From Candidatus Oxydemutatoraceae bacterium (GTDB taxonomy: Bacteria > Pseudomonadota > Gammaproteobacteria > Poriferisulfidales > Oxydemutatoraceae), in contig CBDCOZ010000002.1 in assembly GCA_965220085.1 (NCBI GenBank), positions 166,215 to 230,214 on the forward strand: a stretch of 64,000 nucleotides of DNA. The letters are read 5' to 3'. Below, in pieces: positions 2,091-61,000 of this stretch. Within the stretch, counting starts at the first letter, position 1; every line of letters starts with the position of its first letter. The notes below the pieces were generated by a model. That model ran no database searches. It worked only from the letters and a program-made list of their open reading frames with translations, and was not told the DNA's origin. The position numbers were made by a program, and so were the translations under genes.

Positions 2091-2138
2091 GCATTCCGGC
2101 AGGCGCAAGAATGACCCGTTCCGTCGTTGTGGCAGTTG

Positions 2139-2522
2139 ATGAGGCTAAATACTACACTGTTGCTGGTTCCGACCTTTCTGCTCGGCGGTTTGATAGCGCT
2201 GTATGCGGACGAGAGCTTGCTGCCAAAGATTCCGCCGGCGGACCCCGCCGTTGCGCAATGTGTTGAGCCGACCGAAGTAATGCGCCGCCGCCATCACGAA
2301 TTCATTTTGCATCAGCGCGATGAGACCGTGCGCAAGGGCATCCGCACCGACCGCCACCGCTTTGTGAATTGCATCAACTGCCATGTGCAACCGGATGCCG
2401 CCGGCGACTATCCGCGACACACCGACAGCGACCACTTCTGCACCGCGTGTCATGTGTACAGCAGTGTCAGCATAGACTGCTTCGGCTGTCATGCCGACCG
2501 GCCCGAGGCGGCTTACGAATAA
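2139..2522 (+). CDS. dsrJ: DsrJ periplasmic triheme cytochrome c
   Basis: Signal peptide, MRRRHH motif, three CxxCH motifs (CINCH, CTACH, CFGCH). Confidence 0.93.
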   Translation: MRLNTTLLLVPTFLLGGLIALYADESLLPKIPPADPAVAQCVEPTEVMRRRHHEFILHQRDETVRKGIRTDRHRFVNCINCHVQPDAAGDYPRHTDSDHFCTACHVYSSVSIDCFGCHADRPEAAYE

Positions 2523-2534
2523 CAGGAGCGGGCG

Positions 2535-3317: not shown

Positions 3318-3327
3318 GGAGCCGCTT

Positions 3328-4533: not shown

Positions 4534-4563
4534 CCCGCCGTTTTTCGCAAATGGCAAAAGGCC

Positions 4564-7602: not shown

Positions 7603-7699
7603 GGCTTGCTTTCCTTTAGTGATGGATTCTACTCCTCCCCTGCCAACCTTGCAAGGCATATCCCGCACCGGGACTTATATGCTTGACTCCGTCCGGCCA

Positions 7700-9416: not shown

Positions 9417-11024
9417 TCATGCGCTATTGTCCTCGCAAAACGCGCCGAGTTTCTGAGACGCTTCTGCCGCCACCGCCGCATCACCGGCAAGCTCGGCCAG
9501 CCGTCGGGCTTCTGCCCAAGCAACGCGCGCCTCTTGGAGGCGCTCCAAATCATGCAGGGCGTTCCCCCGATTATGATGCGCCGTCGCATCTGTCGGCTGC
9601 AACTTAATGGCCGTGTCAAAAGCCTCAAGCGCCTCCCGATGACGGCCCAAATGGCTCAGGGCTTCTCCCCGGTTACTATGCGCCATCGCATGTTGCGGCC
9701 GCACCGCAATCGCCTTGTCGTACGCCTCAAGCGCCGCCTCGTAGCGCTCCAAGTCATACAGGGCGGTGCCCCGATTGTTATGCGCCTTCGCATCCTCAGG
9801 ATTCAGCGCGATGGTCTTGTCGCAAGCCGTGAGCGCCTCCTCATAGCGCCCCAAATCGCGCAGCGCCGCCCCCCGATTGTTATGCGCCTCCGCATCGTCC
9901 GGGTCCAACGCAATAGCCGTGTCGTACGCCGCAAGCGCATCCTGCGGGCGATGCAAATCGCGCAGGACATTGCCCCGATTGTAATGCGCCTTCGCATATT
10001 CCGGATTCAGCGCGATGGCCTTGTCGTACGCCGCAAGCGCCTCCTGCGGGCGATGCAAATTGCGCAGCGTAATCCCGCGGTTATAATGCGCCTTCGCATA
10101 TTTTGCATCCAGCGCGATGGCCTTGTCGTAATCCGCCAGCGCATCCTCGTGGCACTCCAGCGCACTGTTGAGATTGCCCCGTTCAAAATAGCGCAGCGAC
10201 AGCGTCTCTTGTTCGCCGTCGGTACGGATTTTCTCATCGAGGTAAGCCCGGGTCTTGACAAAATCATAAGCCTTGTCGTTCGCGTTCGCCGCCGCAAGGC
10301 CGGCGAGATCGGAAAACATAAACGTCTCCGATATTCCCGATTGCTCAAGGATGCGCAACAACAATTCTTTCTCCTCGCGCCGCACCTCGTAGGGCCGCCC
10401 GTGAAAAAATTCTTTCCCGATGCCGGGCCGCCCAAAGATAAACAGCGACTGCTGGGTTACCATCCGGATATTGCTGTCGCCGGGACACCACGCCTGCAAT
10501 TTGTCCGGCGGTTCTCTCTCGCCAAAGAAGTCTTTCAACTCCCCTTTCAATTTTCCGCGCGCTTTGATCTCCTCAATCTTTTCGGGCTCGTCCAAGCGCA
10601 AGGCAAACACCTTCCCGTTCTTCTCAAGTTGGTCCTTGCAAGCGAACCACAGCGCGGTCAGGGCGTTTTCGGTGAAGTCAATCAAGCCGGTCGCGGCGCC
10701 GTAATGTTGCAAGTGCGCCATGATTTCAAGCGGTTGCTTATCGCCGTGTTCGGAAAAGCGCATGAGCGCCTCGTTCACGCGTTCGTGCAGATAGCCGACA
10801 AACAGCGAATGTTCCGCATACGGGTGTTGTTCTATCTTCCGCTTCAAGCGCCGATATGCGCCGGAGTCCAACCCCCAATCGGCGTCGGCCTGACCGCGAA
10901 AGGCAAGCCGCCCTTGCAACGGCATCACCCAACGCATATAGTTTGCCAAGGCTTCGCGGGCTTTTTCCTCCGCCGTGCCGGACGGTTGCGCAGGTTGCGG
11001 CAATTTTTCGGGTTGTCGGGGCAT
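9417..11024 (-). CDS. FRG-domain protein with TPR repeats (paralogue 2)
   Basis: Highly similar to 6004-7602; ATG at 11024 preceded by GGAGGA; upstream ~80 bp also similar. Confidence 0.88.
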   Translation of the reverse strand: MPRQPEKLPQPAQPSGTAEEKAREALANYMRWVMPLQGRLAFRGQADADWGLDSGAYRRLKRKIEQHPYAEHSLFVGYLHERVNEALMRFSEHGDKQPLEIMAHLQHYGAATGLIDFTENALTALWFACKDQLEKNGKVFALRLDEPEKIEEIKARGKLKGELKDFFGEREPPDKLQAWCPGDSNIRMVTQQSLFIFGRPGIGKEFFHGRPYEVRREEKELLLRILEQSGISETFMFSDLAGLAAANANDKAYDFVKTRAYLDEKIRTDGEQETLSLRYFERGNLNSALECHEDALADYDKAIALDAKYAKAHYNRGITLRNLHRPQEALAAYDKAIALNPEYAKAHYNRGNVLRDLHRPQDALAAYDTAIALDPDDAEAHNNRGAALRDLGRYEEALTACDKTIALNPEDAKAHNNRGTALYDLERYEAALEAYDKAIAVRPQHAMAHSNRGEALSHLGRHREALEAFDTAIKLQPTDATAHHNRGNALHDLERLQEARVAWAEARRLAELAGDAAVAAEASQKLGAFCEDNSA

Positions 11025-11195
11025 ATCTGCTTTCCTCCAGTGACGGATTCTACCCTTCCCCCGCAAACCCCGCAAGGCATCCCCGCGCCGAGACTGATAT
11101 GCTTGCCTCCGCTTCGCTCCAACACCTCCGCAGCGCTTCTGGGGCGCTACAATACATGCGACGTATTCGTCAAAAATAATGAGGGGGACTTTCTC

Positions 11196-11459
11196 ATGAC
11201 AACACACCGCACACGACAGGAAGAAGCAGATCGCAACAGCGAAGCGCTTGACAAATTATTGCCGCAGTATATTCAAGATAATTTTGCGGGGCAATATGCT
11301 TTGATGCGCGATGGCAAGGTCGAACTCATCCTTAAAGGTTTTCACGTTGCCGTCATGGCAGGAAACAGGATGTTTAAGGATCGGTTATTTTCTGTTGAGA
11401 AGATCACCGACGCGCCTATCCATTTGGGATTTTATTCTTACTTTCATCCCGGCTCTTGA
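11196..11459 (+). CDS. Small hypothetical protein (87 aa, DUF5678-like)
   Basis: GAGGGGG RBS then MTTHRTRQEE..GQYALMRDGKV..; the real 3' end of the spurious antisense ORF 9534-11459. Confidence 0.65.
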   Translation: MTTHRTRQEEADRNSEALDKLLPQYIQDNFAGQYALMRDGKVELILKGFHVAVMAGNRMFKDRLFSVEKITDAPIHLGFYSYFHPGS

Positions 11460-18636: not shown

Positions 18637-20655
18637 TTATCGCAACGGGCCTTCCAGGAAGACGCGCAACCGCAAGCGCAGGCGCAGGCGCTCCGCCAAG
18701 CTAATGGTCATGGTGTGGGTTGCGCTGTCTAAGGCGCCATCGTTTACGGTGAAGGTGAAACTGGCGAAGTCAGGGGCGGCGGCGGAGTTGTCCGGGGGAT
18801 AGAAAGTGAGGTTGCCGTTGCGCAGCTCGTCGTCGGTTACTTCGGTGTTGGCGGTCACTGCGGCGCTGCCGTTGCGCAATGTGCCCTTGCCGGATGCTAT
18901 CGGGGTGACTATGGTTATGTGATCCAGGCTGTTGCCTTCCTCGTCCCTGTACGGGAAGTCGGATTCCGTGAAGATGTACGGATTGGTTGCGCTTGTGTTG
19001 ACGGATACGCTCACCGAATTGTCAGCGCTGGTGGGCACATCATTGACATGGGTTACCACGGCGCCGTCGGAGCACAGCATGGGGGCGCCGACGCTGCCGC
19101 CCTCGGCGTTGTTCAGAGCATCGCGGAAGAATGCGCAGACTCTGATGTGCATGTTCCCATCCGCCTGCGAGGGGGTGAAGGCGGCGGCGTTGGCTCCGGA
19201 GATGGCGGCGTATGGGCCGGTCTGGGCATCGGCGCGGTACCATTGCCAGCGTATGTTTGCATTGCTTATGCCGTTGGGGTCGGTAATGCCGTCGGTACTG
19301 GCGGTCAGCTCGGTATCCTCGTCATAGCCGGCGGTCGGGTCTGCGGCCGGAGTCACTGTGGGGGCGCCGCTGGCGGCGCCCTGAGTGGCACTGACGAGGT
19401 CTATGATGAGGGTGGCATCGGCGGTGGCCTCGTTGGCGACTGCCGTTGAGGGTGCTGATGTTGTGCCGGTGTCGCGCACCCGGTATGTGAATGTCGCATA
19501 GTCGTCGGTGACGGTGGCGCCGTCAGCCGGGTAGTATGCCAGAGTGTCCAGTTCGGCCAGAGTCAGCGTGGCGTTTGCGCCGCCGGTGACGGCTGTGTTG
19601 GAAGCGCCCACCCGCCGCACCAGAGTGCCCGCCGTGGGCAGGGTGACTATGTGGATGCCGTTGATGGTGTCGTCATCGACATCGCTAAATGGAAAATCCG
19701 CCCTGACAAAGCGGTGCGGATTGTTGCTGCTGACATTGGCCGGCACCGCAACCGTGCTGGTGCTGCCGACAGGCGCATCGCTGATATTGTCTATGCGGGC
19801 GACCTCGGAGCAACGCGTCTCGTCGCCGGGAGGGGTATGCAGATCCTTGAAGCTGACGCAGAGGCGCACATACTGCTCCGCCTGTTCATCGCCGGGGGCA
19901 AAGTGGTCGGGCATGTTCCCGGTGGAGGTCGCGCCTCTGATGTCGGCGTATGGGCCGGCGCGGGCGGGGGATTGTTGCCATTGCCAACTATAGGCGATAG
20001 CGACGTTGCCTTCTCTGCCGAAGCCGACTGGGTCGATGCCGCCGTTCAGGTCATTGATATCGCCAGGTCCGCCTTCGAGTATCTCATCCTCCCAGTAACT
20101 TTCTCTGGAAAATGTGGTCAGGGACTGGTGGAAGGGCGCGCCGATGGCGGGTGTTTGCGCGACCGCGCGAAGGTTGATGCTGAGCGTGGCTTCGTTGGAA
20201 TCCAGGAAACCGGCCCTGACAGTGAATGTAAAACTGGTGTAGCCGAATTGTGCCTCCTGATTGGCTTCCGGCCAGTATTTGATGTCGCCGAGGTTGGCGG
20301 CGGTCACATTCTGATTCACCGTAGCGGCGGAGCTGGCCACCTGCAGGGTGCCCCGAGCCGGCAGGCTCTTTATCGTGATGTTGACCAGAGTATCCCCGTC
20401 CCTGTCGTTGAAAGGGAAGTCGTCCCTCTTGAAGGTGTACGGCATGTCGGAGGTGGCGTTGTGCGGTATCCAAAGCGTGTTAGGCATGGCCTCCGGCGCC
20501 GCCGCCGATGCCTGAGCAATCGCTTGGTTCGCCGTGGCGAGCAGGGCAAGCATAGCCGACAACAAGAGGCCTCGGCGCATCATCGTTGCTCGCCAGTTGC
20601 GCTGTCGCAGCGCATGCGGGAAGACCCGCTCTTTGAGTTGAGATTTAATTCGCAT
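18637..20655 (-). CDS. Secreted cadherin-like/Ig-repeat protein, FLEGPLR family
   Basis: Signal peptide (..LLLSAMLALLATANQAIA|Q), alternating DFPF.D.DGD and WQW..GA..F.P Ig-like repeats, ends RLRLRLRVFLEGPLR*. Confidence 0.85.
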   Translation of the reverse strand: MRIKSQLKERVFPHALRQRNWRATMMRRGLLLSAMLALLATANQAIAQASAAAPEAMPNTLWIPHNATSDMPYTFKRDDFPFNDRDGDTLVNITIKSLPARGTLQVASSAATVNQNVTAANLGDIKYWPEANQEAQFGYTSFTFTVRAGFLDSNEATLSINLRAVAQTPAIGAPFHQSLTTFSRESYWEDEILEGGPGDINDLNGGIDPVGFGREGNVAIAYSWQWQQSPARAGPYADIRGATSTGNMPDHFAPGDEQAEQYVRLCVSFKDLHTPPGDETRCSEVARIDNISDAPVGSTSTVAVPANVSSNNPHRFVRADFPFSDVDDDTINGIHIVTLPTAGTLVRRVGASNTAVTGGANATLTLAELDTLAYYPADGATVTDDYATFTYRVRDTGTTSAPSTAVANEATADATLIIDLVSATQGAASGAPTVTPAADPTAGYDEDTELTASTDGITDPNGISNANIRWQWYRADAQTGPYAAISGANAAAFTPSQADGNMHIRVCAFFRDALNNAEGGSVGAPMLCSDGAVVTHVNDVPTSADNSVSVSVNTSATNPYIFTESDFPYRDEEGNSLDHITIVTPIASGKGTLRNGSAAVTANTEVTDDELRNGNLTFYPPDNSAAAPDFASFTFTVNDGALDSATHTMTISLAERLRLRLRLRVFLEGPLR

Positions 20656-32329: not shown

Positions 32330-32694
32330 TATCGCCTGCGACTCAAAAAAGCTCGGAGTCATAGCGGACTCTGCACTGAGTGCGAGCAATTCCCCCGCGA
32401 GGGGAAGGTGCGGTCGGCGCAAGGGCAAAGCTTGCGCTTGGGAATACCCTATATAATGTAGGCATTACGGGGATAAATGCGCCGGTTGCAAAGCGTGTAC
32501 AAATCGTGTATAGTGCGGGTTTTACGGACGGACAATGTGTGCGCAAACAGCGCTTAGCTGTTTGCGGATTGCTTACCGGAGGTTACGAAACCCAATGGAA
32601 AATATTCTATATAATCTGGGCATCATCAAAGATGTACGCGCTCAATCGCAGGGCAGCGCGAAGGTCTTGTGTAATGCAAACTTCAGGAGGATAC
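32330..32694 (+). promoter_or_regulatory. Conserved upstream promoter/leader module of FLEGPLR genes (copies at ~34620-35059, ~36900-37395, partial ~41400-41584)
   Basis: Near-identical blocks with CTATATAAT, CGTGTATAGT, GCAAACA..TGTTTGC hairpin, ATGGAAAATATT and AGGAGG RBS. Confidence 0.75.
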
Positions 32695-33886
32695 ATGAAA
32701 ATGTTTACAATGTTTAGCCAGTTCACCCCCCCCCCCCCCCCCCCGCATTGACTTAAGCGGGCGCGGCCTCCGGTCGCTCTTCCTGCTCGCCCTCTTCATC
32801 GTATCCGCTCAGGCTCAGGCGCAGAATGCCACCGGCATGCCATCGGTGGCTTACGCCAGTGGCAGCGCACCCACCGAGGATGTGCGGATAACCGCATCGG
32901 GTGACAACATAGCCGATGCCGATGGCTTGGGCGCCTTCGGTTGGCAATGGAGCGCGGCCGACACCAACGGCGGCGCCTACGCCAATATCTCCGGCGCGAC
33001 CAATGCCGCATTCACTCCGGGCGATGACGAGGTAGGCAAGTTTCTGCGGGTCTGCGCATCGTTCATGGATATGGCCGCCACCCCCAATATGGAGAAGCGA
33101 TGCCTGCAGATAGCCACCGCTGTGGCCAACATCAACGACAAGCCATTGGCCACCTCTTTCACAATTGCAGTGCGCACCGCCGCCAGCGCCGCCGACCCCT
33201 ACAGGCTCCGACCAACTGACTTCACTTTCAGAGATGCCGATAACGACATGCTGGCCAGCGTAGTCATACACGGCCTGCCGGCCGCCGGTACCATGTCCTT
33301 GGATGGCACGGCCCTGACCGCCGACGATGTCCCCACAGCGGAGATAACTGTGGTCCGACTGACCGCCGGCGCTCTGACCTATTACCCGGAGTCAGGCCAG
33401 GAGCCCACCAACCCCAGCGATTCCTTTGAAATTTATACCAGTTTCAGATTCGGCGTGACAGACGATGGCAGCGATGGCACCGGCAACAATGCCAGCGACA
33501 ACATCGCCAGCATCAGCATCCGTCTGGTATCGGCGGTCCAGACCGCCGCCTCTGGCAGTCTCATCACACTTCCACTTCCCAACGGGGTAGGGCTGTCCGC
33601 CAATACCGTCGGAATCAGAGATCCCAACGGCATAAATCGCAACACTCTGATGTATGAATGGCAACAGTCCGCCGCCAGCGATGGCCCCTTTGCCCCCATA
33701 GAGGGTGCCACCTCCAGAGAATTCACCCCCCGGCCAGGCCAGTTGAATCAATACATCCGCGTCTGCGTAACCTTTATGGATCAACACACACCCCCGGCAG
33801 AGGAGGGCCCGCTCTGCTCTGCCGCCGTTCGTGTCGGCCCCATACGCTTGCGCTTGCGCATCTTCCTGGAAGGCCCGTTGCGATAG
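32695..33886 (+). CDS. Phase-variable FLEGPLR-family Ig/cadherin-like secreted protein (out of frame in this sequence)
   Basis: AGGAGG-ATG MKMFTMFSQFT then C19; removing one C joins RIDLSGRGLRSLFLLALFIVSAQAQAQ signal peptide and the 32837-33886 ORF. Confidence 0.82.
32726..32744 (+). repeat. Poly-C tract (C19)
   Basis: Direct count; lies at codon 11 of the gene. Confidence 0.9.
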
Positions 33887-34055
33887 CGCGAGCAACATTC
33901 GCCCCTTGTGGGCTTGCGCCACACACTGGAGCGACTCAACGCGATGCGTTGGTAGCGGGAGCAATCCCGTCGCGGGACGCACCGCTAATATGTTCCCTTG
34001 CGGAGAGTCGGCAAGCTAAGGGGGCTGACGAGCGGGTAGCCTGGCGGTAACTGCT

Positions 34056-34447
34056 CCGACACGTTGCTCGCACCATCCCGCAAGCGCGCATTCCGAGCGC
34101 TTTGCCTTGCGCTTAAAAATTGAAAACCGACATGTTGCTCGCATCATCCTCGCAAGCGCGCATTCCGAGCGTTTTGCCTTGCGCTTAAAAATTGAAAACC
34201 GACATGTTGCTCGCATCATCCTCGCAAGCGCGCATTCCGAGCGTTTTGCCTTGCGCTTAAAAATTGAAAACCGACATGTTGCTCGCATCATCCTCGCAAG
34301 CGCGCATTCCGAGCGTTTTGCCTTGCGCTTAAAAATTGAAAACCGACATGTTGCTCGCATCATCCTCGCAAGCGCGCATTCCGAGCGTTTTGCCTTGCGC
34401 TTAAAAATTGAAAACCGACACGTTGCTCGCATCATCCTCGCAAGCAC
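34056..34447. repeat. 72-bp tandem repeat, ~5.4 copies
   Basis: Unit GCATCATCCTCGCAAGCGCGCATTCCGAGCGTTTTGCCTTGCGCTTAAAAATTGAAAACCGACATGTTGCTC, nearly invariant. Confidence 0.95.
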
Positions 34448-35059
34448 ACCGGAGAGGGGAGCAATGATTAGTGCCAGCACGAAGCTTTCCCCCTCGTCGC
34501 ATCGTCTATCGTCTGTGGCTCGGACTCTGCGACTCTCAAAAAAAGCTCGGAGTCATAGCGGACTCTGCGACTCCTGCAAGGGGAGAGTGCGACCGGCACT
34601 CGCACACCTTGCGCTACGGTAGTCTCTGCGTTCCCTCACCGCATTGTCTGTCGCCTGTGGCCCGGACTCTGCGACTCCCGCGTGGGGAGCGTCGTGCCAG
34701 CACCCGCACAAAGCTTGCGCTGAGGAAAAGTCTATATAATATAGGCATTACGGGGATAAATGCGCCAGTTGCAAGGCGTGTGCAAATCGTGTATAGTGCA
34801 AGTTTTACAGGAAATGTGTGCGCAAACAATTAATCAAGGACACACAAACAACATAAGAAACCGCAAACGATTAAATATCGTTTGTGCTCTTATTACCGTG
34901 CTCTTATCACTGTGTTCCATAAACTGTTTGCGGAATGTTTATTGGAGGTTACGAAACCCGATGGAAAATATTTTGTATCATTATAGGCATCACCAAAGAT
35001 GTGTGCGCTCAATCGCAGGCGGGTGCAAAGGCCTTGTGATGCAGACTTCAGGAGGACGC

Positions 35060-36816
35060 ATGAAAATGTTTACAATGCTTAACCAATTCACCCCCCCCCC
35101 CCCCCCCTAGTCCTTGAGCGGATTTGCGTAGCACTGCTCGCTTGCGCTTTGTCTTTGCTTACGAACACCGCACACGCACAAACCAACAGCTGTGCGGCGG
35201 TCATCCACGGCACCGAATGCATGGACGCATGCCCCGCCGGATTCACCGCCACAACCCAAGACCGCGTGTGCATTGAAAACGCGCACATCGATGGCGCGAA
35301 CAAATGCGAAGCCAAAGGATGGACAACCCGACTGGAGATTGCCGGCTTCGCCTTTTCCCTTTGTAACATAAAAAACAAAGACCCGACATCAACCCAGGAC
35401 TTTTGCATTTTGGGCATCAACTGCGCAGACCGTTTCGGTCCGGACCTTGACTTTCCGCAACGCCCGGCGGACGACCCGGCAACGGCGGAAGACGAAAGCG
35501 ACCCGCGCTATGTCTACAACTGCGACACGGGCGGAACCACCGGACATCTTCCGGCGACTTTCGCCGACGGGCGCACGATGTGCGAATGTCCCGCCGCCGC
35601 GACAGAAAACGCGGACGGCGTGTGCGTTTGTCCGGCGCAAACCGTCTTGCTGGGCGAGGCTTGCCTCGCCGACACGCCGGAAAACAGATGCAAAGCGGCG
35701 GGATGGACGGTCTCAACCGACAATCAATGCGTCGTCCCCATCACCTCCCCGGACGGCGGCAATGCGGACGGATGCTTCTTGGCCGGCAACGGCAGTCCGC
35801 AATGCGCCGATGTGTTCGGACCGGATCTGTCGTTTCCAGACCCTTCGACCGACTCCGCCGCGCGGTTTGTCTACGACTGCGGTCTGGACATGATCCCGCC
35901 GCGGGCAAACACCGACGGCGAAACCGAATGCGCGCCCGACCCGCAAGCGTGCGGGTTCAGCGACGTAGCAAGCACATTCAGCGGTCAGGACAGTGCGCAA
36001 CAAATTTCCATGCAGTTTGATGTCTGCGCGGCAAAAGGATGGCAGGCGAAAAAGCATCCCAGTTTTGAATCCGTTTTGAAGTCTTGCTACTGCGACATCA
36101 ATGTGCGGGACGCGTCAGCCGCAGTAGCATGCCCCTACTCCCACTCTTCCTCCCGCTTCGGAAATGTCAGCGGAAATACCTTCCTTCGCCATCACTTCGG
36201 CCCCGCCCTGCAATACCTCCCGCAATGGACGGCCGAAAATGCGGACACCTGCTTTGTGTCGCATTGTCCGGACGGGATGGAACCGACCGAGTTCAACACC
36301 AACGGCGCGACCGAATGCCTGGCGCCCAGCGGGACGGTTTGCGGGGAGTTGAGTCCGGCGAAACGCTTTGACGGCAGCGCCTGCGTGGAAGACTGCGCGA
36401 TGGCGGCGACATTGAACGAGGCGGCGAATGTGTGCGAATGCCAAGCGCCCAATGTGGGGACGGGTTCGGATTGCCGTGCGCCGAGCCCACAGGTTTGCGC
36501 GGGTTTGACACCGGCAAAATTCTTCAACGAAACAGCCTGCGTTGATTTTGTTTTGTGCGCCGCACCGGCGACATTGAACGAGGCGACGAATGTTTGCGCA
36601 TGCAATTCGCCAAATGTGGGGACGGGTTCGGATTGCCGCGCACCGAGCATACAGGCTTGCGCGGGTTTGACGCCGGCGAAACACTTTGACGGGGCGACCT
36701 GCGTTAATCTTGTTTTCTGCGACGCGCCGCTGGTGCCGGACATAGCGACGAATACCTGCGTGTCCGGCGATATCAACCTGCGCCTGCGCATCTTCCTGGA
36801 AGGCCCGTTGCGGTAG
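35060..36816 (+). CDS. Phase-variable cysteine-rich (EGF/furin-like repeat) secreted protein, FLEGPLR family (out of frame)
   Basis: MKMFTMLNQFT then C17 then TAG; adding one C joins LVLERICVALLACALSLLTNTAHA|Q and the Cys-rich ORF ending INLRLRIFLEGPLR*. Confidence 0.82.
35091..35107 (+). repeat. Poly-C tract (C17)
   Basis: Direct count. Confidence 0.9.
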
Positions 36817-37395
36817 TGCGAGCATCCCCTCGCCGCATCGTCTATCGCATCATCTCGCAAGCACACCGGAGAGGGGAACGATGATTGGCGCAAGCACACA
36901 GCTTTCCCTCTCACCGCATTGTCTGTCGCCTGTGGCCCGGACTCTGCGACTCCCGCGTGGGGAGCGTCGTGCCAGCACCCGCACAAAGCTTGCGCTGAGG
37001 AAAAGTCTATATAATATAGGCATTACGGGGGATAAATGCGCCAGTTGCAAGGCGTGTGCAAATCGTGTATAGTGCAAGTTTTGCAGGAAATGTGTACGCA
37101 AACAGCAGTTTAATGAGGCACAGTGATAAGAGCACAAACAACTTTGTTGTTTGTGGCTTTTTCATGAGAGCACGGTAATAAGAGCACAAACGATATTTAA
37201 TCGTTTGTGGTTCCATAAACTGTTTGTGGTTTCTTAAGCTGTTTGTGTTCCATAAACTGTTTGCGGAATGTTTATTGGAGGTTGTACGGAACCCGATGGA
37301 AAATATTTTGTACCATTATAGGCATCATCAAAGATGCGCGCGCTCAATCACAGGGCGGGTGCAAAGACCTTATAATGCAAACTTTAGGAGGATGC

Positions 37396-38382
37396 ATGAA
37401 AATGTTTACAATGTTTAACCAATTCACCCCCCCCCCCCCCCCCCCCCCCCCTCATGTAGCTGCTGAACAGCGGCTCAGTTGCCGTAGCCTGCGGTCGTTG
37501 ACCATCCTCGCTTTGTTTGCGTTGTACGGCACGGCACAGGCGCAGGACAGTGCGCCGGACTTTGGCGATGCATCGGTTGCGGATCAGGGTTGGCTGACCG
37601 GCACAGCGCTCAGTCTGGTGTTGCCTGAGGCTACCGGCGGCGATGGCGCTCTCTCATACACGCTGACCCCGGCTTTGCCGGCGGGCCTGACCTTTGATGC
37701 GACCGCCCGCGCCATCAGCGGCACGCCGACCGCTGTGGCGACCGAAGCCGCCTATGCCTACACGGTCACCGATAGCGACAGCAACACCATGTCCGCCGAT
37801 GCGGACACCTTGACTTTTGCCATCATCGTGGAAAGCGCTCCCGACAGGCTTTGCACCCGTCGGGGCTGGACTTACGACACCGCTTCCGACAAATGCCAAA
37901 TCCCCCTTTTCTCAGGCGGAATCAACTTTGACGGATGCTTCTTCTCCGGAGACGATGCCCCCCAATGCACCGATGTCTTCGGCGGATCACTCGCCATTCC
38001 CTCCACTCTGACCGGAGTCGCACTGTCTCTTTACAACGCCTTTCACGCCGCCGCCATCGACCCTAATACGAGCTCCCATGTTGCCCCCGCCGCCGCCATT
38101 TGGCGCGATGCCGTTGTGGCGCGGCACACCGGCGATCCAGACTACGCCGACGGCCCCGTCGCCCACTCTGCGGTCACCAGCAGTCTTATAAACGAATTTA
38201 TCTCCGAGCGGTTGGGGCATCATTTCAACGCCAACGGAATTCCCTTTGAGGACGACAGCGAAGACTTTGAAAGTGAAATCCGCACCGCCTTTGCCCAAAT
38301 CCCCGTGCGCCAACCCTTCGTCTTCCCATCGGACACGCTCAACTTGCGGTTGCGCATCTTCCTCGAAGGCCCGTTGCGGTAG
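37396..38382 (+). CDS. Phase-variable putative-Ig (He_PIG) protein, FLEGPLR array member 1 (in frame)
   Basis: MKMFTMFNQFT-P8, signal peptide ..GTAQAQ, LPAGLTFD..ISGTPT Ig motif, Cys module, FLEGPLR end. Confidence 0.85.
   Translation: MKMFTMFNQFTPPPPPPPPHVAAEQRLSCRSLRSLTILALFALYGTAQAQDSAPDFGDASVADQGWLTGTALSLVLPEATGGDGALSYTLTPALPAGLTFDATARAISGTPTAVATEAAYAYTVTDSDSNTMSADADTLTFAIIVESAPDRLCTRRGWTYDTASDKCQIPLFSGGINFDGCFFSGDDAPQCTDVFGGSLAIPSTLTGVALSLYNAFHAAAIDPNTSSHVAPAAAIWRDAVVARHTGDPDYADGPVAHSAVTSSLINEFISERLGHHFNANGIPFEDDSEDFESEIRTAFAQIPVRQPFVFPSDTLNLRLRIFLEGPLR
37427..37451 (+). repeat. Poly-C tract (C25)
   Basis: Direct count; keeps the reading frame. Confidence 0.9.
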
Positions 38383-38389
38383 CGCGAGT

Positions 38390-39352
38390 ATGTTTGCGAT
38401 GTTCACACCCATTTACACCCGTCGGCGGAACAGAACACGCACTCGGCGTAGCCTGCGGTCGTTGACCATCCTCGCTTTGTTTGCGTTGTGCGGCACGGCA
38501 CAGGCGCAGGACAGCGCGCCGGACTTTGGCGATGCATCGGTTGCGGATCAGGGTTGGCTGACCGGCACAGCGCTCAGTCTGGAGTTGCCTGAGGCTACCG
38601 GCGGCGATGGCGCGCTCTCATACAGCCTGACCCCGGCTTTGCCGGCAGGCCTGACCTTTGATGCGACCGCCCGCGCCATCAGCGGCACACCGACCGCTGT
38701 GGCGACCGAAGCCGCCTATACCTACACGGTCACCGATAGCGACAGCAACACCATGTCCGCCGATGCGGACACCTTGACTTTTGCCATCATCGTGGAAAGC
38801 GCTCCCGACAGGCTTTGCACCCGTCGGGGTTGGACTTACGACACCGCTTCCGACAAATGCCAAATCCCCCTTTTCTCAGGCGGAATCAACTTTGACGGAT
38901 GCTTCTTCTCCGGAGACGATGCCCCCCAATGCACCGATGTCTTCGGCGGATCACTCGCCATTCCCTCCACTCTGACCGGAGTCGCACTGTCTCTTTACAA
39001 TGCCTTTCACGCCGTAGCCATCCTCTCCGGAAACCCCCCATGGGTCCCGGTCATCGCCGTCGCTTGGCGCGATGCCGTTGTGGCGCGGCACACCGGCGAT
39101 CCGGACTACGCCGACGGCCCCATCGCCGCCCTTGCGGGCAACACTCGCACTCAGAATGCGCTCGCCCTCGAGATCCTTAATACGAATGGTTTCGTTCCCA
39201 ACGGAATTCCCTTTGAAGATGCCGTCGCCGCCGACTATGAGCATGAAATCCGCACCGCTTTTGCCCTAATCCCCGTACGCCAACCCTTCGTCTTCCCATC
39301 AGACACGCTCAATTTGCGGTTGCGCATCTTTCTAGAAGGCCCGCTACGGTAG
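38390..39352 (+). CDS. He_PIG protein, FLEGPLR array member 2
   Basis: ATG 7 nt after the previous stop; MFAMFTPIYTRRR leader; near-identical N-terminal two thirds. Confidence 0.85.
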   Translation: MFAMFTPIYTRRRNRTRTRRSLRSLTILALFALCGTAQAQDSAPDFGDASVADQGWLTGTALSLELPEATGGDGALSYSLTPALPAGLTFDATARAISGTPTAVATEAAYTYTVTDSDSNTMSADADTLTFAIIVESAPDRLCTRRGWTYDTASDKCQIPLFSGGINFDGCFFSGDDAPQCTDVFGGSLAIPSTLTGVALSLYNAFHAVAILSGNPPWVPVIAVAWRDAVVARHTGDPDYADGPIAALAGNTRTQNALALEILNTNGFVPNGIPFEDAVAADYEHEIRTAFALIPVRQPFVFPSDTLNLRLRIFLEGPLR

Positions 39353-39359
39353 CGCGAGT

Positions 39360-40325
39360 ATGTTTGCGACGTTCACACCCATTTACACCCGTCGGCGGAC
39401 AACACGCCCTCGGCGTAGCCTCTGGTCGCTGACCATCCTCGCTTTGTTTGCGTTGTGCGGCACGGCACAGGCACAGAACAGCGCGCCGGACTTTGGCGAT
39501 GCATCGGTTGCGGATCAGGATTGGTTGACCGGCGTAGCGCTCAGTCTGGTGTTGCCCGCGGCTACTGGCGGTAATGGCGCTCTCTCATACAGCCTGACCC
39601 CGGCTTTGCCGGCGGGGCTGACCTTTGATGCGGACACCCGCGCCATCAGCGGCACACCGGCCTCTACGGCAACCGAAGCCGCCTATACCTACACGGTCAC
39701 CGATAGCGACAGCAACACCATGTCCGCCGATGCGGATACTTTGACTTTTGCCATCACCGTGGAAAGCGGAACTCCCGACAGGCTTTGCACCCGTCAGGGT
39801 TGGACTCACGACACCGCCTCCGACAAATGCCAAATCCCTCTGACCTCGGGCGGACGCGACTTTGACGGTTGCTTCCTCTCCGGAGACGATGATCCCCAAT
39901 GCGCCGATGTCTTCGGCGAATCACTCGCCTTTCCCTCCTCCGCTCTGACCGGAGTCGCATTGTCCCTTTACAACGCCTTTCACCGTGAGGCTTTCAGAAC
40001 CGACAACTCTGCCGGCGGCTCTGCAATTCGCGCAAATGCCATCGCTTGGCGCGATGCCGTCGTTGCGCGACACAACGGCGATCCGAACTACGCCGCCGGC
40101 CCCGTCGCCGCCCTTGCGGATAGCTCCTTTGCTCTAAGCATCTTCCTCGCCCAACAGTTGGAGATTCATTTCAAAGACAACGGAATCCCCTTTGACAAAG
40201 ATACCAACGACCTTGCGAATGAAATCAGCGTTGCCTTTTCCAAAATCCCGGTACGCCAACCCTTCGCCTTCATGAGCTCGATCAACCTGCGGTTGCGCAT
40301 CTTCCTGGAAGGCCCGTTGCGGTAG
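39360..40325 (+). CDS. He_PIG protein, FLEGPLR array member 3
   Basis: Same architecture, different variable region. Confidence 0.85.
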   Translation: MFATFTPIYTRRRTTRPRRSLWSLTILALFALCGTAQAQNSAPDFGDASVADQDWLTGVALSLVLPAATGGNGALSYSLTPALPAGLTFDADTRAISGTPASTATEAAYTYTVTDSDSNTMSADADTLTFAITVESGTPDRLCTRQGWTHDTASDKCQIPLTSGGRDFDGCFLSGDDDPQCADVFGESLAFPSSALTGVALSLYNAFHREAFRTDNSAGGSAIRANAIAWRDAVVARHNGDPNYAAGPVAALADSSFALSIFLAQQLEIHFKDNGIPFDKDTNDLANEISVAFSKIPVRQPFAFMSSINLRLRIFLEGPLR

Positions 40326-40332
40326 CGCGAGT

Positions 40333-41283
40333 ATGTTTGCGATGTTCACACCCATTTACATCCGTCGGCGGACAACACGCACTCGGCGCAGCCTTTGGTC
40401 GCTGACCATCCTCGCTTTGTTTGCGTTGTGCGGCACGGCGCAGGCACAGAACAGTGCGCCGGACTTTGGCGATGCATCGGTTGCGGATCAGGGTTGGCTG
40501 ACCGGCACAGCGCTCAGTCTGGTGTTGCCCGCGGCTACCGGCGGCGATGGCGCTCTCTCATACAGCTTGACCCCGGCTTTGCCGGCAGGCCTGACCTTTG
40601 ATGCGACCGCCCGCGCCATCAGCGGCACACCGACCGCTGTGGCGACCGAAGCCGCCTATACCTACACGGTCACCGATAGCGACAGCAACACCATGTCCGC
40701 CGATGCGGACACCTTGACTTTTGCCATCATCGTGGAAAGCGTTCCCGACAGGCTTTGCACCCGTCGGGGTTGGACTTACGACACCGCTTCCGACAAATGC
40801 CAAATCCCCCTTTTCTCAGGCGGAATCAACTTTGACGGATGCTTCTTCTCCGGAGACGATGCCCCCCAATGCACCGATGTCTTCGGCGGATCACTCGCCA
40901 TTCCCTCCACTCTGACCGGAGTCGCACTGTCTCTTTACAATGCCTTTCACGCCGTAGCCATCGCCGCACACGCCGGATATCTCACAGCCGCCGCCGCCAT
41001 TTGGCGCGATGCCGTCGTGGCGCGGCACACTGGCGAGTCAAACTACGCCGCCGGCCCCGTCGCCGCCCTTGCGAACAATTCCCTTCCTATAAACGGCCTC
41101 ATCGTTCAGGAGTTGGGGCATCATCTCAACGAGAGCGGAATCCCCTTTGACGACGACACCGACGGCGACCTTGAAAAGGAAATCCGCGCCGCCTTTTCCA
41201 AAATCCCGGTACGCCAACCCTTCGCCTTCATGTCTTCGATCAACCTGCGGTTGCGCATCTTTCTTGAAGGCCCGTTGCGGTAG
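40333..41283 (+). CDS. He_PIG protein, FLEGPLR array member 4
   Basis: Same architecture, different variable region. Confidence 0.85.
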   Translation: MFAMFTPIYIRRRTTRTRRSLWSLTILALFALCGTAQAQNSAPDFGDASVADQGWLTGTALSLVLPAATGGDGALSYSLTPALPAGLTFDATARAISGTPTAVATEAAYTYTVTDSDSNTMSADADTLTFAIIVESVPDRLCTRRGWTYDTASDKCQIPLFSGGINFDGCFFSGDDAPQCTDVFGGSLAIPSTLTGVALSLYNAFHAVAIAAHAGYLTAAAAIWRDAVVARHTGESNYAAGPVAALANNSLPINGLIVQELGHHLNESGIPFDDDTDGDLEKEIRAAFSKIPVRQPFAFMSSINLRLRIFLEGPLR

Positions 41284-41584
41284 CGCGCGCAACATTCGCC
41301 CCTTGCGGACTCACACTACACACTCCTACCGCACCATCCCGCAAGCACACCGGCGAGGGGAACGATGATTAGCGCCAGCACGAAGCTTTCTCCTCGCCGC
41401 ATCGTCTATCGCCCGACAGCTCGGACTCTGCGACTCTCCGGCGAGGGGAGGGTGCGGTTGGCGCAAGGGCAAAGCCTGCGCTTAGGAATACTCTATATAA
41501 TGCGGGCGTCGTCAAAGATGAATGCGTTGATTGCGGGGCGTGTGCGAGTCGTGCATATTGCAAGCTTGCCGAGGATACATTAAA

Positions 41585-42787
41585 GTGTTTGCGATGTTCA
41601 CACCCATTTGCACCCGCCGACGGACAACACGAACTCGGCTTAGCCTGCGGTCGCTCATTCTGCCGGCGCTGTTTGTTGTCTGCGCTCAGGCGCAGGCGCA
41701 GAACACTGTCGCCACCGGGGAACCGGCGGTGACGGCGGCGGACAGCGCTGACCTGACTATGGTGGGGCCCAATGAGGACATTGTGCTGACTGCGGCCCGC
41801 GGCACGATAATGGATGATACCGATGACATCACCACATTCAGCCCGACCTGGGCCTGGCAACAGGCCGATGCCCCGAACACCGGCACTCCGGCGGACAGCG
41901 ACTACTCCGCCATAGCCGGCGCCACCGCCGCCACCTTCACACCCCTGCAGGAACATGGCGGCAAGTTCATCCGCGCCTGCGCCACCTTTGACGATGATGC
42001 CGGCAACAGCGAGACCCGATGCTGGACCTCCGCCGCCGCTGTGGTCAATGTCAATGACAAACCGGTTGCGCTGGACAACACCATCTTTGTGCCGGTGGGC
42101 GGCAGTTACACTTTCTCGGCGGACGACTTTCCGTTCACCGATGAAGAGCGTGACACTCTGCGTTGGGTGACCGTTAACACCGTGCCCTCCAGAGGCACTG
42201 TGGCCATATTGGGATCAGGCGCCAGCAGAAGCTTTGACGTTTCGAAGTCACATTTGGATAGCAACAACCTGACCTACGTCCCTTCCGCTGATGCCACCGC
42301 TCCCATGGCCGGCTATACCACCTTTACCTTCGTTGTGAGAGCCGGCGGCGGTAACCGCGAACACGCCAGTGCCGCCGCCACCATGACCATAGATCTGGTG
42401 CAGGCCACGCAATCGGCGGCAACCGGCACACTGATTGTGACGGCGGCATCGGGCGCAGCCTACAACGAGGGCGCGGAACTGACCGCCTCCACCGCCGGCA
42501 TCATCGAACCCAACGGCATCCGCCCCCACGGCCTGATGTGGCAATGGCAATCCGCCAGCGCGCCAATCAGCGGCGCCCCGCCCGCCAGCGCATATGGCGA
42601 CATCACTTCGTTCACCGACGCCACCTTCACCCCTTCGCAAGCGTATGTCGGCACATACATCCGCGTTTGCCTCAATTTCACCGATGGCTTGGGCACCGCC
42701 GAGGGCCCGTTCTGCTCCGCCGGCGCCCGTGTGTTTGACGCCTTGCGCTTGCGGCTGCGCCTCTTCCTTGAAGGCCCGTTGCGGTAG
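41585..42787 (+). CDS. Ig/cadherin-like secreted protein, FLEGPLR family
   Basis: GTG 41585 or ATG 41594 start, signal peptide ..CAQAQAQ, WAWQQ/DFPFTD repeats, ends ALRLRLRLFLEGPLR*. Confidence 0.83.
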   Translation: MFAMFTPICTRRRTTRTRLSLRSLILPALFVVCAQAQAQNTVATGEPAVTAADSADLTMVGPNEDIVLTAARGTIMDDTDDITTFSPTWAWQQADAPNTGTPADSDYSAIAGATAATFTPLQEHGGKFIRACATFDDDAGNSETRCWTSAAAVVNVNDKPVALDNTIFVPVGGSYTFSADDFPFTDEERDTLRWVTVNTVPSRGTVAILGSGASRSFDVSKSHLDSNNLTYVPSADATAPMAGYTTFTFVVRAGGGNREHASAAATMTIDLVQATQSAATGTLIVTAASGAAYNEGAELTASTAGIIEPNGIRPHGLMWQWQSASAPISGAPPASAYGDITSFTDATFTPSQAYVGTYIRVCLNFTDGLGTAEGPFCSAGARVFDALRLRLRLFLEGPLR

Positions 42788-57189: not shown

Positions 57190-58037
57190 CGGACAAGACT
57201 CTGAACCGTCTTATCTATCGCACTGACTAATCGAATAGAGTGATTTTCACTTTTCACAAGATTCTCCGTAAGCTGTGTGCTAACTAACTCCGTCCAGTCT
57301 CGCATCGCTGGTATAAGGTTGCCCGACAGGAACTGAAACAAGTAACAATCTATAAACGGTCTATACGGTTCCATTACATCATAGGCTAACGGGTTAGAAC
57401 CATAGCGTGCCACATGACCTGTTCCTAAAAGAGGTGACAAGCCGTGTGCGACTAATGACCTATGGCAAAGAGAGGTCAACACAGTGTAACCATAATTTAG
57501 CATTGCGTTAGGAACATCACTATCTTGACGATTCCTTCGTGCTTGCGGATATCCGATCAAAGGGAAATATTCTCGCCAGTAATAGCGCGCGCAGTTACCC
57601 TCATCAATGTGCTTGCTTTCTATAGCGCGTCCCAAATATGCCGAACTAGCCCCCATAGACTCTAAGCCCAATTTTTGATTTACTGTTTTTGCTATCAGCA
57701 TCCGCTTCCATAGTGACTTGTTGAAGCGAACCGGTTGTTTGGCTTGGTTTGAATAAGCGGCAGTATTCAACGATTTCTCAAGAGGGCAAGTAATGCCGGA
57801 TGGTAGAAACTTGTCATCGCAATGTAAGATGATTGCTCCCTCAGAAAGCACGGCACTAATCAAGTTAGAGGTAAATGTAACACCTTTAGCGGCAATAACA
57901 ATTGCGCGTATATCTTCAATCGGATGTTTTAGTTCTTTACACTGCTTCTGCCTATCAAGCGACCTGCAAACTAAGAAACCCCTTTCTTTGCAGATGAAAG
58001 AATTGTGTTGAAGGATGTGAATAATGTTGTGACTCAT
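57132..58037 (-). CDS. cas1: Type II Cas1
   Basis: PIEDI, EGNCARYYW, NAMLNYGYTVL, LAYDVMEPYRP. Confidence 0.95.
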   Translation of the reverse strand: MSHNIIHILQHNSFICKERGFLVCRSLDRQKQCKELKHPIEDIRAIVIAAKGVTFTSNLISAVLSEGAIILHCDDKFLPSGITCPLEKSLNTAAYSNQAKQPVRFNKSLWKRMLIAKTVNQKLGLESMGASSAYLGRAIESKHIDEGNCARYYWREYFPLIGYPQARRNRQDSDVPNAMLNYGYTVLTSLCHRSLVAHGLSPLLGTGHVARYGSNPLAYDVMEPYRPFIDCYLFQFLSGNLIPAMRDWTELVSTQLTENLVKSENHSIRLVSAIDKTVQSLVRCYSEMKITPLWFPEIEIG

Positions 58038-61000
58038 TCATGCTTTCGTTTTTTTAAAACAAATTTCTTCTTTTCCCTATCTGACTCTTCCTTTATAAAG
58101 GAATTCAGAGTCCCTTCACACTTCTTTCCTTTTGAAGATGTCATTTCTATTCTCCCATTAGATTTAATAGTGTTAAGCATATATGTACCAGAACTTATTT
58201 CTTTCTGGTTCTTTTTAGTAATTACGGCTTCAGTCACTTCTATAAGACACTTTGAATGGAAAAAATCAAATATTTTTTGTACATCTGGGTTACTCTCTAA
58301 TTCTTTTTTAACTGTATGCTTTGACTCAAATACTCTTACTGGTTTAACACGCACTTTGTCTTTACTATCCAAGTAAAGAAACTGTCCTTGGTCTGGCCCT
58401 TTGCGAGTTCTAAATTGTCCAAATTGGCCTCTGGAAATGTCCTTGTAATTACTGATGCCTCTGTCTGCAACTCGGACTTTCTTCACTAAGGGGCTATTCT
58501 TATTCAATCGGAAATCCTTACAGTATTCTTGCCATTGTTTTTCATCCATTTGCTTATTCTCACTAATCCAATCTTTTACCTTTTTGCGGATATCATCATC
58601 ATATATTTTTTCAGCCCTCTTTTTTATTGCTGTCATTCCTTTCCACTTGCCATTTTCATCATACGCTAAAGAGTCAAGAGACACTCGATAAGTTGCTTGC
58701 TCTTCACCGTCAACTTCTCGCTTCCCGTATATTGTTTCCCTGAGAATAGGCTTGTCAAAGCATATTTGGTGCGGCATGACTTGTTCAAGCACAGAACCAA
58801 AGAATCTTTGCGGGTTAGCCTTGCGCACTTCTGGGGGAAGAGCAAAATAAAGCCGCTTCTTAGAATCTCTTACCCAGTTTGGGATAAAAGACAATATCAT
58901 TGCGTCCAGCGCATGGTGTCGCTTATCATTTCTATTCTTTTCCACGTTCGTTCCTTCGTGCAACAACTCAAACAGCTTATACTTTTGAGCAACCATGTTT
59001 GTCGCACCCCCGCTCAGCACAACCACCTTCCTATCATTCCCTTCAAAATCCGGTTTCCAACCGAAATGTAGGCACACTATCATCTGTGTTAATTTTGCAA
59101 TCCAAGCTGTTTGCTGGAGTTTGACGCGATTGTCGGCAGCCTTTAAAGCATCTTCCATGTTCGTCGCTGATAGAAGTGTGGCTTTAAATTTAGGGTACTT
59201 CTTTCCTTTCACCATTCCTTTGAGACGCTCTACAAAGGCGCTCCATATGCCTTCCTGCTTTAGCCAATCAGATGGCAAGCGGTCGCCTTGATTACCATTA
59301 CAATTCCTACACGCAAGCACAATATTCATGTAAGCACGCGGACCGCCTTGAGAATTCGGAACTATATGGGTTATTTCTGTATTTTCAAAAGGTATTGCCT
59401 TACGTAAACCGGATGATTCAGACAGAGTAATCAGACGATCACAAAATATACAACGCTCTTGTTGCTCTTTCAAAAGTTGCCATTTCAGTATGTTTTCCCG
59501 GGAAGGAGATAGCTTTTTCTCTCCCAATTCTTCCCGTGCATCCTTATTTGCTTTTTCACGTTTTTTCGCATGTGTCGTGTATTCACTCTTTCTCCTTTTC
59601 GATAACCAATCTTCTCTGACAAATTCAATGGCCACTCTGTCAGGGGTACCAAACTCCTCTTGCATATTTTTTATCTGTGAAAGAAAGACCCCTAATCTAT
59701 GGCGAACTACAGGGTCGTTTTGGCTGGCAATAATCTTTTGAATAGCATATTCTTTGGCTTGCTCATCTTCTTTACCTATGGTTTTATATTCCGACAGTGT
59801 TTCATCTGGAATGTAAAGCCCAGCCCAACTATTTCCCATACGCTCCATAAAGGATAAATCTTCTTTAACCAGGCCTTTTTTCTTATCGGAGTTTCCATCA
59901 ATCAGCCTCTTTTCATTTTCCTTCAAGAATTGTCGGGGCGCTTTCCCAGAAAGAATAATATCTTTGATTATCTTCAGGGCTGGGCGTGAAAATCGAGCTC
60001 TTCCGGAAAATTTCGGAGCATCAACTTTGTTATTCTCCGGAGCCGCATGTGCACTATCTCCGCCATATCGGCAAATATACTTTGCCAGTTTTTTCTCTGT
60101 CAACTTCAGTTTGTTCGTGATCTTTCTTTCTGATGTGTCTTGCTTCTTATTGTTAACATCTTGCATGCACTCATCAAATATTTCTTTCAACTTATTGTTA
60201 ACATCTTGCATGCACTCATCAAATATTTCTTTCAACTGCTCACATGTAAATGCCTTTTTATCTTCTCCGACTATAAATCGGAAATTTTTTAACTTCATTA
60301 AAAATGTGACTTGTGCGGGTAGCAACGAGTCTCCCACAATATCACCGTTTTTAACTTTGGGAGTAGCACGGCAAACATTGAGCCGAGGGATGAGGGCACA
60401 TTTATTTGGAGAACGATTATCAAATGTCGGTATCTTTTGTGCCAAAATTCCCTGCCAGTCGGTTTCCTTGCCTCTAAGTAATTTTTTTCTGCCCCCTACT
60501 TTTTCGTATAATTCGGGGGTCTCGCACTCGGCACGATACGATGCATAGGCTTCGCCTGCGGGCCCGTACAGCAGATAGTCTTCTTTTCCTGTAAGGGCGG
60601 GGTATTGCTTTTCTGCTTGCTTGAACATGCAACGCAATTGTTTCTCTATCATGTGCCTGGGATACACGGCCATCGTGGGAGGCAACCACTCTATATCCTC
60701 TTTTGCCTTGCCTTTCTTTTTTTCGTTGTTTAACTTTTCTCTTGCTATCGGATCTTTCGTCTCACCCACATGGGTGCTTTTGGCGTTATGGTCAATACGC
60801 ACTTTGTATGTGTCGGGTAATTTCGGATCCCATAAACCCATGCGATACGCTTCCCAATAACATGGGTGATGGTGATTTGCATCCTTGCTTATGTTTTTTA
60901 TTTCTTTCTGAATGCAGGTTGCTCGTTCAGCAGTTTCGGTAAATTCCCCATTTTCTTCTTCGCTTTTTTCTCCACTTCTATCGGCGGTTTTTGCAACATT

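Follow-up and report, generated by a model that had tools for sequence, protein, structure and literature searches.

The stretch of DNA analysed here, referred to as the window, is a 64-kb part of a 2.49-Mb, three-contig genome (55.6% G+C) of a Candidatus Oxydemutatoraceae bacterium, and it contains three genes, all on the plus strand, in which a long run of cytosines separates a short leader sequence from the signal peptide of a protein carrying the C-terminal tail FLEGPLR. Direct reading of the sequence places tracts of C19, C17 and C25 in genes 1, 2 and 3, respectively, each preceded by AGGAGG-N4-ATG and a 31-nt leader. In gene 1, the ribosome-binding site AGGAGG (32685–32690) and the ATG at 32695 introduce the leader ATGAAAATGTTTACAATGTTTAGCCAGTTCA, which encodes MKMFTMFSQF(T) (32685–32725, including the ribosome-binding site) and runs directly into the C19 tract at 32726–32744. 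Gene 2 has AGGAGG at 35050–35055, the ATG at 35060 and a leader encoding MKMFTMLNQF(T) (35050–35090) ahead of C17 at 35091–35107; in gene 3 the corresponding features are AGGAGG at 37386–37391, the ATG at 37396, a leader encoding MKMFTMFNQF(T) (37386–37426) and C25 at 37427–37451. Alignment of the three leaders gives the common sequence ATGAAAATGTTTACAATG(T/C)TTA(G/A)CCA(G/A)TTCA. A search of the window for C runs of at least 10 bases returned 34 overlapping matches, every one of them inside the three tracts; in 100 dinucleotide-preserving shuffles the mean number of C10 matches was 0.07, and none of the shuffles reached 34.

Beyond the tract, a single reading frame is open in each gene. The numbers of open codons in the three frames are 3, 1 and 379 for gene 1, 0, 2 and 568 for gene 2, and 4, 309 and 1 for gene 3; the wrong frames all close within 0–4 codons, and the long frames are unbroken up to ...NLRLRIFLEGPLR-stop or ...IRLRLRIFLEGPLR-stop, the general form of the tail being ...LRLRIFLEGPLR-stop. 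At the assembled tract lengths, genes 1 and 2 are out of frame with their start codons (OFF) and gene 3 is in frame (ON), with its tract translated as T-P8-H. By frame arithmetic, gene 1 would be in frame at C18 or C21, and gene 2 at C18 or C15. Each open frame starts with a basic stretch, which is followed by a hydrophobic core and, as the A-x-A site, by SAQAQA (gene 1), AHAQ (gene 2) or AQAQ (gene 3). From the tract to the hydrophobic core, all three genes lack an in-frame ATG, the tract being the sole connection of start codon to signal peptide. A preliminary description of this DNA had reported the three tract lengths, the AGGAGG, the shared leader, the frame states, the restoration of genes 1 and 2 by C18 and the absence of decay downstream, and all of this is borne out, the 379-, 568- and 309-codon frames running unbroken to the tail. 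It had also described a translational ON/OFF switch; the architecture of such a putative switch is well supported by the early stops, by the tract as sole link and by the lack of an inner ATG.

The body of gene 1 (32745–33886) comprises the signal peptide (..GRGLRSLFLLALFIVSAQAQAQ) and the 379-codon frame, ending in IRLRLRIFLEGPLR-stop, and the only match of its product in the domain scan was ZirU-like and below threshold. That of gene 2 (35108–36816) has the signal peptide (..ICVALLACALSLLTNTAHAQ) and a Cys-rich 568-codon frame ending in INLRLRIFLEGPLR-stop, with no match to its product in Pfam or NCBIfam. The body of gene 3 (37452–38382) encodes the signal peptide (..RSLRSLTILALFALYGTAQAQ), an Ig-like domain of the He_PIG family and the tail LNLRLRIFLEGPLR-stop; an AlphaFold2 model of this product, built from a five-sequence alignment, had a mean predicted local distance difference test score (pLDDT) of 47.3 and a predicted template modelling score (pTM) of 0.32, and was too poor for fold comparison. 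Because gene callers begin the OFF genes 1 and 2 behind the tract, the corresponding public proteins, P0081 (MPSVAYASG..) and P0087 (MDACPAGF..), have no signal peptide and look cytoplasmic. The cutting short of OFF copies in this way means that such families are systematically mis-annotated as lacking signal peptides.

The preliminary description had presented the shared leader as a property of three FLEGPLR genes, which is true but too narrow, in that these genes form one sub-family of about 81 candidate poly-C switches in the genome. There are 86 C/G runs of at least 10 bases, ranging from 10 to 28 and mostly of 13–28 bases (48 as C and 38 as G on the plus strand). The spectrum of run lengths is bimodal for C/G alone, with few runs at 8–9 bases and then the 86 longer ones, and the longest A/T run in the genome is of 9 bases. 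When every tract is read on its C strand, 81 of the 86 are followed by a single long frame of 161–979 codons ending in an LEGxLx tail, nearly always LRLRLFLEGPLR, and all 81 frames are open the whole way to this conserved tail. An ATG lying 12–60 nt upstream and open to the tract is present at 69 of the 81 loci, most commonly at a distance of 25 nt, with leaders such as M(N/K)(R/K)Q.FNT; after the tract, a basic stretch and hydrophobic core follow in 79 of the 81, accompanied by an A-x-A site in 73. The hypermutability threshold for a G/C homopolymer is about 7–8 bases or more, and the loci show three of the characters of a contingency locus: a tract of hypermutable length; its position within the reading frame, downstream of a start codon, so that any change in length other than by a multiple of three would shift the frame; and one frame intact with the others truncated.

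The frame states of these loci are 17 ON and 60 OFF, with four unclear that have no recognisable start. The ON share of 22% is near, but slightly under, the 33% of random phase (p = 0.04). Ordinary fixed genes would all be in frame, and the observed states are incompatible with this. In the wrong frames, a stop is met at a median of 5 codons (n = 170), compared with 21 codons at control positions within the same frames (n = 678; Mann–Whitney p = 3.6e-31). The tracts consist purely of CCC, a codon that accounts for 28.5% of the proline codons of the long open frames, against 50.6% for CCG, and this exclusive usage points to selection on the DNA run and not on a proline peptide. Paralogue pairs with near-identical flanks were uninformative as to length change, only four passing the filters: C18/C15 (90.8% flank identity), C22/C22 (88.5%), C22/C20 (84.5%) and C20/C20 (83.3%).

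The proteins behind the tracts belong to a larger family defined by the tail. In the whole genome, [FLIVM]LEGxLx-stop closes 220 stop-to-stop frames, and in 213 of these the ending is exactly FLEGPLR. The 220 frames total 164,409 codons (about 19.8% of the genome), two of them being as long as 4,989 and 15,193 codons; an example within the window lies at 18637–20655 on the minus strand. Most of the 54 members scanned against Pfam had no match, the remainder including He_PIG Ig-like domains (10 members), Big_9 (4), cadherin-like families (4, 3 and 1) and single matches to PPC, the InlB B-repeat and the CshA repeat. The tail is kept through synonymous variation, both within the genome and in a sister genus, and it is therefore a peptide signal rather than a DNA repeat. 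FLEGPLR resembles the signatures of the PEP-CTERM/exosortase, GlyGly-CTERM and LPXTG systems, and the C-terminal domain of the type IX secretion system, in being a short conserved C-terminal sequence shared by many secreted proteins of one genome that have an N-terminal Sec signal but are otherwise unrelated. Unlike these, it stands at the extreme C-terminus, and neither a transmembrane helix nor a basic tail follows; the last 50 residues gave no NCBIfam match at E ≤ 10, and the genome, which encodes two secretins, has no match to Exosortase_EpsH. The attributes of a -CTERM signal (a trailing hydrophobic helix with basic residues, a curated model and a cognate sortase-like enzyme) were thus not found for FLEGPLR. 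Nor does the tail have the form of the outer-membrane beta-signal, a C-terminal strand of alternating hydrophobic residues that ends in an aromatic residue, as here the alternating L-R-L-R-L-R-L-F is followed by LEGPLR and the final residue is R or Q.

A profile of the last 40 residues, run against 1.84 billion representative proteins, gave 59 matches at E ≤ 0.001; among the 58 of these that were examined, 49 came from this genome, 53 had the tail and four were foreign proteins ending in FLEGPLQ. The homologue search with the gene 3 product returned 80 matches, nearly all through He_PIG, and only P0036 among the proteins foreign to this genome had the tail. The tag is rare outside the lineage and nearly confined to this genome. 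It is also previously undescribed, no paper containing 'FLEGPL' having been found in a literature search outside which lay subscription journals and supplements.

Counts of FLEGPL[RQ]-stop were 214 in this genome, 11–34 in each of the five genomes of genus g3, two in a further genome (G012) and zero in the other 12 genomes of the family, and the reversed control gave zero. Because the g3 genomes have the tag but just 2–9 C runs of at least 9 bases each, the tag family is older than its coupling to tracts. This genome has 81 distinct C runs of at least 13 bases, and the other family genomes have 0–14 each (14 of 18 having at least one); all 16 genomes of a sister family have them (1–45 each), and none was found in 17 genomes of a small-genome family (about 1 Mb). 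An even sampling of the class (301 genomes) included 70 with at least one such run; this genome ranked first, and only six genomes outside this order had more than 20. In the relatives G003 and G001, about 11 of the 20 tract loci fetched have the layout of a short ATG leader and a tract ahead of one long frame that encodes a signal peptide or lipobox. Two genomes from other families of the class share it: in G314, at five of six fetched loci, with C14–C38 before lipoproteins bearing ..LTACAGGG (L113–L118), and in G062, at three of four, with the leader MPVK.ATSAIHNLI followed by C16–C45 (L124–L127). The layout is not clear at the tract loci of G176 and G114. In the relatives and other lineages the layout is found on other secreted proteins and lipoproteins, and the design of a poly-C tract in a signal-peptide region may have arisen repeatedly, in several lineages.

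This recurrence bears on the idea that the tracts are non-adaptive debris, a neutral expansion of C runs at a tolerant spot that leaves the out-of-frame genes as young pseudogenes. That most copies are OFF (60 of 77), in a family so large (220 frames) that its members could be redundant, would agree with such an origin, but all 81 frames, of 161–979 codons, have stayed open as far as the conserved tail, the tail has been kept through synonymous changes within the genome and in a sister genus, the tracts occur at one defined position only, and the same layout recurs in separate lineages on unrelated proteins. We consider this the least probable of the explanations, and very unlikely.

Our preferred reading, to which we assign a probability of roughly 0.68, is slipped-strand translational phase variation of an adhesin-like secreted family. 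The C tract would be a hypermutable homopolymer placed between a short translated leader (Shine–Dalgarno sequence, ATG and 7–10 codons) and the signal peptide, to which replication slippage would add, or from which it would remove, C residues. One length in three would connect the start codon with the signal peptide, the tract then being translated as 4–9 prolines (ON); the other two lengths would meet the stops directly behind the tract, so that a peptide of about 15–25 residues would be made and no secreted protein (OFF). Acting together, some 81 such switches would turn a clonal symbiont population into a mosaic of cells displaying different subsets of the family. We infer frequent changes of tract length in vivo, export of the proteins to the surface or the medium, and an adaptive value of the variation, for instance against phagocytosis or recognition by the host or against phage.

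Several observations weigh against phase variation, or at least against some part of it. The surface location is suggested solely by signal-peptide features and by the Ig-like or cadherin-like domains that a minority of members possess. The genome encodes uninterrupted MutS and MutL, and tract instability is therefore not raised by a loss of mismatch repair of the kind that raises it in Campylobacter and Helicobacter. Because the consensus lengths of homopolymers of 13–28 bases are error-prone, the single ON and OFF calls are uncertain. Independent evidence on tract length came from Logan contigs, all from one study. Run X1, with a share of 0.83 of the sampled words, is possibly the source sample; runs X2–X4, with only small shares, were left out as evidence of habitat or strain. 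Contigs of this kind drop minor variants and give no length distribution. At gene 2, a 270-base contig of run X1 covers 34921–35190 with zero differences, so that contig and assembly have the identical tract. At gene 3, a 254-base contig covers 37254–37512 (259 bases) with no substitutions and five bases missing, most simply read as C20 instead of C25. The segment 37417–37460 is flagged as a repeat at which reads seem to have been cut, and the five-base difference, the only one over the 259 bases, agrees with the length heterogeneity expected of switching but could equally well reflect technical error. The public protein clusters have one member each. A scan of Joint Genome Institute metagenomes with the commonest leader end plus C12 yielded six contigs, all of low GC content, unrelated and not matching this genome.

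The same contigs bear on the possibility of an assembly artefact, in which the tracts are genuine but, at their correct lengths, would all be in frame within ordinary polyproline genes. Long homopolymers are the weakest point of a sequencing consensus, and contig and assembly do differ at the gene 3 tract. Nevertheless, the artefact requires wrong lengths at 60 of 77 loci, and the independent contig gives the very same out-of-frame C17 at gene 2. Moreover, if a proline peptide were under selection, the preferred CCG would be expected beside CCC, and the enrichment of stops in both other frames would have no purpose if the frame never changed. An explanation of the OFF copies by assembly error alone therefore appears highly unlikely to us.

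A further alternative is that slippage occurs at the level of RNA, with RNA polymerase or the ribosome slipping on the C run so that every gene yields some in-frame product and the tract serves as an attenuator or noise generator, rather than as a heritable switch. Tracts of 13–28 bases are long enough for transcriptional slippage, which has been shown mainly on A/T runs, and the near-random frames (17 ON, 60 OFF), the intact long frames and the early stops in the wrong frames are explained equally well in this way. On the other hand, elongation slippage is much weaker on G/C than on A/T runs, and at gene 3 the length difference is seen in DNA. Such runs must also be unstable in replication, so that RNA slippage would at most act alongside switching at the DNA level, and as the full explanation we regard it as unlikely.

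The remaining difficulty for phase variation lies between the tract and the hydrophobic core, where 57 of the 81 loci, including genes 1–3, have no in-frame ATG but the other 24 do (..ATM(T/I)RRSL..), four of them with a Shine–Dalgarno-like motif; at these 24 loci, initiation could be independent of the tract. Many paralogues have L at the equivalent codon (..ATLTR..), which suggests that an ancestral start has been lost and that expression now depends on leader and tract. An inner start would also be needed if the leader and its polyproline formed a regulatory leader peptide, that is, an upstream frame at which stalling or termination dependent on elongation factor P (EF-P) controls the downstream start, with tract length tuning that control. 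The tract does encode proline in every frame, EF-P is present and uninterrupted in the genome, and the stops of the wrong frames fall near the region in which the 24 loci retain an ATG just before the signal peptide. However, no such ATG exists at 57 loci, genes 1–3 among them, the Shine–Dalgarno-like motif accompanies only four of the 24, and the L codon of many paralogues suggests that a downstream start has been lost there; a proline stall, in addition, has no need of pure CCC. This arrangement seems to us distinctly unlikely, and none of the rival explanations accounts for the whole set of signatures as well as phase variation does.

Genes 1–3 also have in common a conserved upstream module of about 180–350 nt, seen in the alignment, which comprises TTGCAA-17-TATAGT and variable inserts containing inverted repeats. 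The promoter-like site TTGCAA-17-TATAGT, located by a consensus scan on the plus strand, lies at 32486–32514 at the head of the gene 1 module, where it is a match to the consensus only, and, with the support of the alignment, at 34769–34797 upstream of gene 2 and at 37045–37073 upstream of gene 3. In the variable upstream part of genes 2 and 3, at 34862–34886 and 37185–37209, there is an inverted repeat, C(G/A)CAAACGAT..ATCGTTTGTG, together with several CAAACA/TGTTTG words; this may be a regulator site or may represent a small mobile insert. The possibility of a longer leader, in the form of an upstream conserved 'MENILY' frame, was rejected, as indels shift its frame among the three genes. 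Between genes 1 and 2, at 34056–34445 (plus strand), lies a tandem repeat of 5.4 copies of a 72-bp unit (98% matches), every unit of which includes a promoter-like TTGAAA-16-CATCAT.

Downstream of gene 3, four FLEGPLR-tailed paralogues without a tract follow head to tail on the plus strand (38390–42787), at 38390–39352, 39360–40325, 40333–41283 and about 41585–42787. Their leader, MFAMFTPIYTRRR.., has only CCC at the position of the tract (TTC ACA CCC ATT), and these four genes, fixed in frame, serve as internal controls. Because the genes at 38390 and 39360, the two checked by sequence, begin 10 nt past the preceding stop, they are probably co-transcribed with the putatively switchable gene 3. 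A search of the whole window against Rfam returned nothing at gathering thresholds.

The preliminary description had spoken of a sulfur oxidiser and of contingency loci as typical of host-adapted bacteria, and both attributes are plausible here. At 135–5925 (plus strand), domain matches identify DsrL-like (Pyr_redox_2 + 4Fe-4S), NrfD/DsrP-like and CobB/DsrN-like genes, which are consistent with a reverse-Dsr cluster for sulfur oxidation. By AtpD, the closest named relative is a metagenome-assembled genome (MAG) titled uncultured Candidatus Porisulfidus sp. (85% identity), followed by a Candidatus Oxydemutatoraceae MAG (84%), and Porisulfidus is listed among known sponge symbionts in the abstract of PMC12988363. 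The window also encodes two paralogous FRG-domain proteins with many TPR repeats, a eukaryote-like repeat type (6007–7668 and 9420–11207, both on the minus strand), a 1145-residue frame with HNH and RuvC_III domains that is Cas9-like (type II CRISPR-Cas; 58037–61471, minus strand) and a glutamine synthetase.

Of the known systems, PilC of Neisseria has a poly-G tract in the signal-peptide coding region, of about 10–13 bases and in one or two genes per genome. As at the present loci, a G/C homopolymer lies in the 5′ part of the gene that encodes the signal peptide, and a change in its length by slipped-strand mispairing switches a surface-associated protein; the differences are that here there are about 81 loci, with tracts of 11–28 bases and non-homologous proteins, and that switching is known for PilC whereas here it is predicted from sequence. 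The Opa proteins of Neisseria are outer-membrane barrels with CTCTT repeats, in about 11 copies, in the region coding for the leader peptide. They too form a multigene surface family, and a separate repeat within the signal-peptide coding region of each copy allows the copies to be ON or OFF independently, with combinatorial display as the result. In contrast to the pentanucleotide of opa, the repeat here is a homopolymer, the copies number about 81, and the FLEGPLR proteins are modular and of variable size, up to thousands of residues, with only the leader and the C-terminal tag in common. Pfam scans of four window proteins and 54 family members showed no domain similarity to Opa or PilC.

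Larger sets of hypermutable repeats occur in Campylobacter and N. meningitidis. These bacteria live as pathogens or commensals restricted to vertebrate hosts, and their tracts, mostly of 8–13 bases, are distributed over many unrelated gene classes. The poly-G/C phasomes of Campylobacter and the simple sequence repeat (SSR) repertoires of N. meningitidis are genome-wide and lie in or before surface-structure genes (PMC6321876, PMC5084427), and the title of PMC5084427 gives 115 candidate genes for N. meningitidis. The present genome differs from these in having one type of repeat, at one position and in one superfamily, in a likely sponge-associated sulfur oxidiser with intact MutS and MutL. The literature search mentioned above, with the same scope, yielded no study of phase variation at poly-C or other homopolymer tracts in either sulfur oxidisers or sponge symbionts.

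In a few vertebrate pathogens, repeat slippage is a textbook mechanism of phase variation. The same principle would here be at work in an uncultured and probably sponge-associated chemoautotroph, at about 81 loci, at one position and in one superfamily that makes up some 20% of the genome, with tracts two to three times longer than in the known systems. In its widest form, the interpretation is that about one-fifth of the genome of a likely sponge-associated sulfur oxidiser is a single secreted adhesin-like superfamily, whose new FLEGPLR tag would imply a novel pathway of sorting or anchoring; that about 81 of its members would be under independent and very fast poly-C switches, allowing combinatorial surface variation, as in vertebrate pathogens, towards an animal host with innate immunity only; and that the design would have arisen repeatedly in uncultured gammaproteobacteria. 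We put this forward tentatively, its chance of holding in every part being a little below even. If the switching is real, symbiont populations within one host would be phenotypic mosaics, a new secretion or anchoring signal would await characterisation, and the escape of symbionts from ingestion or recognition by sponge cells, or from phage, would become testable.

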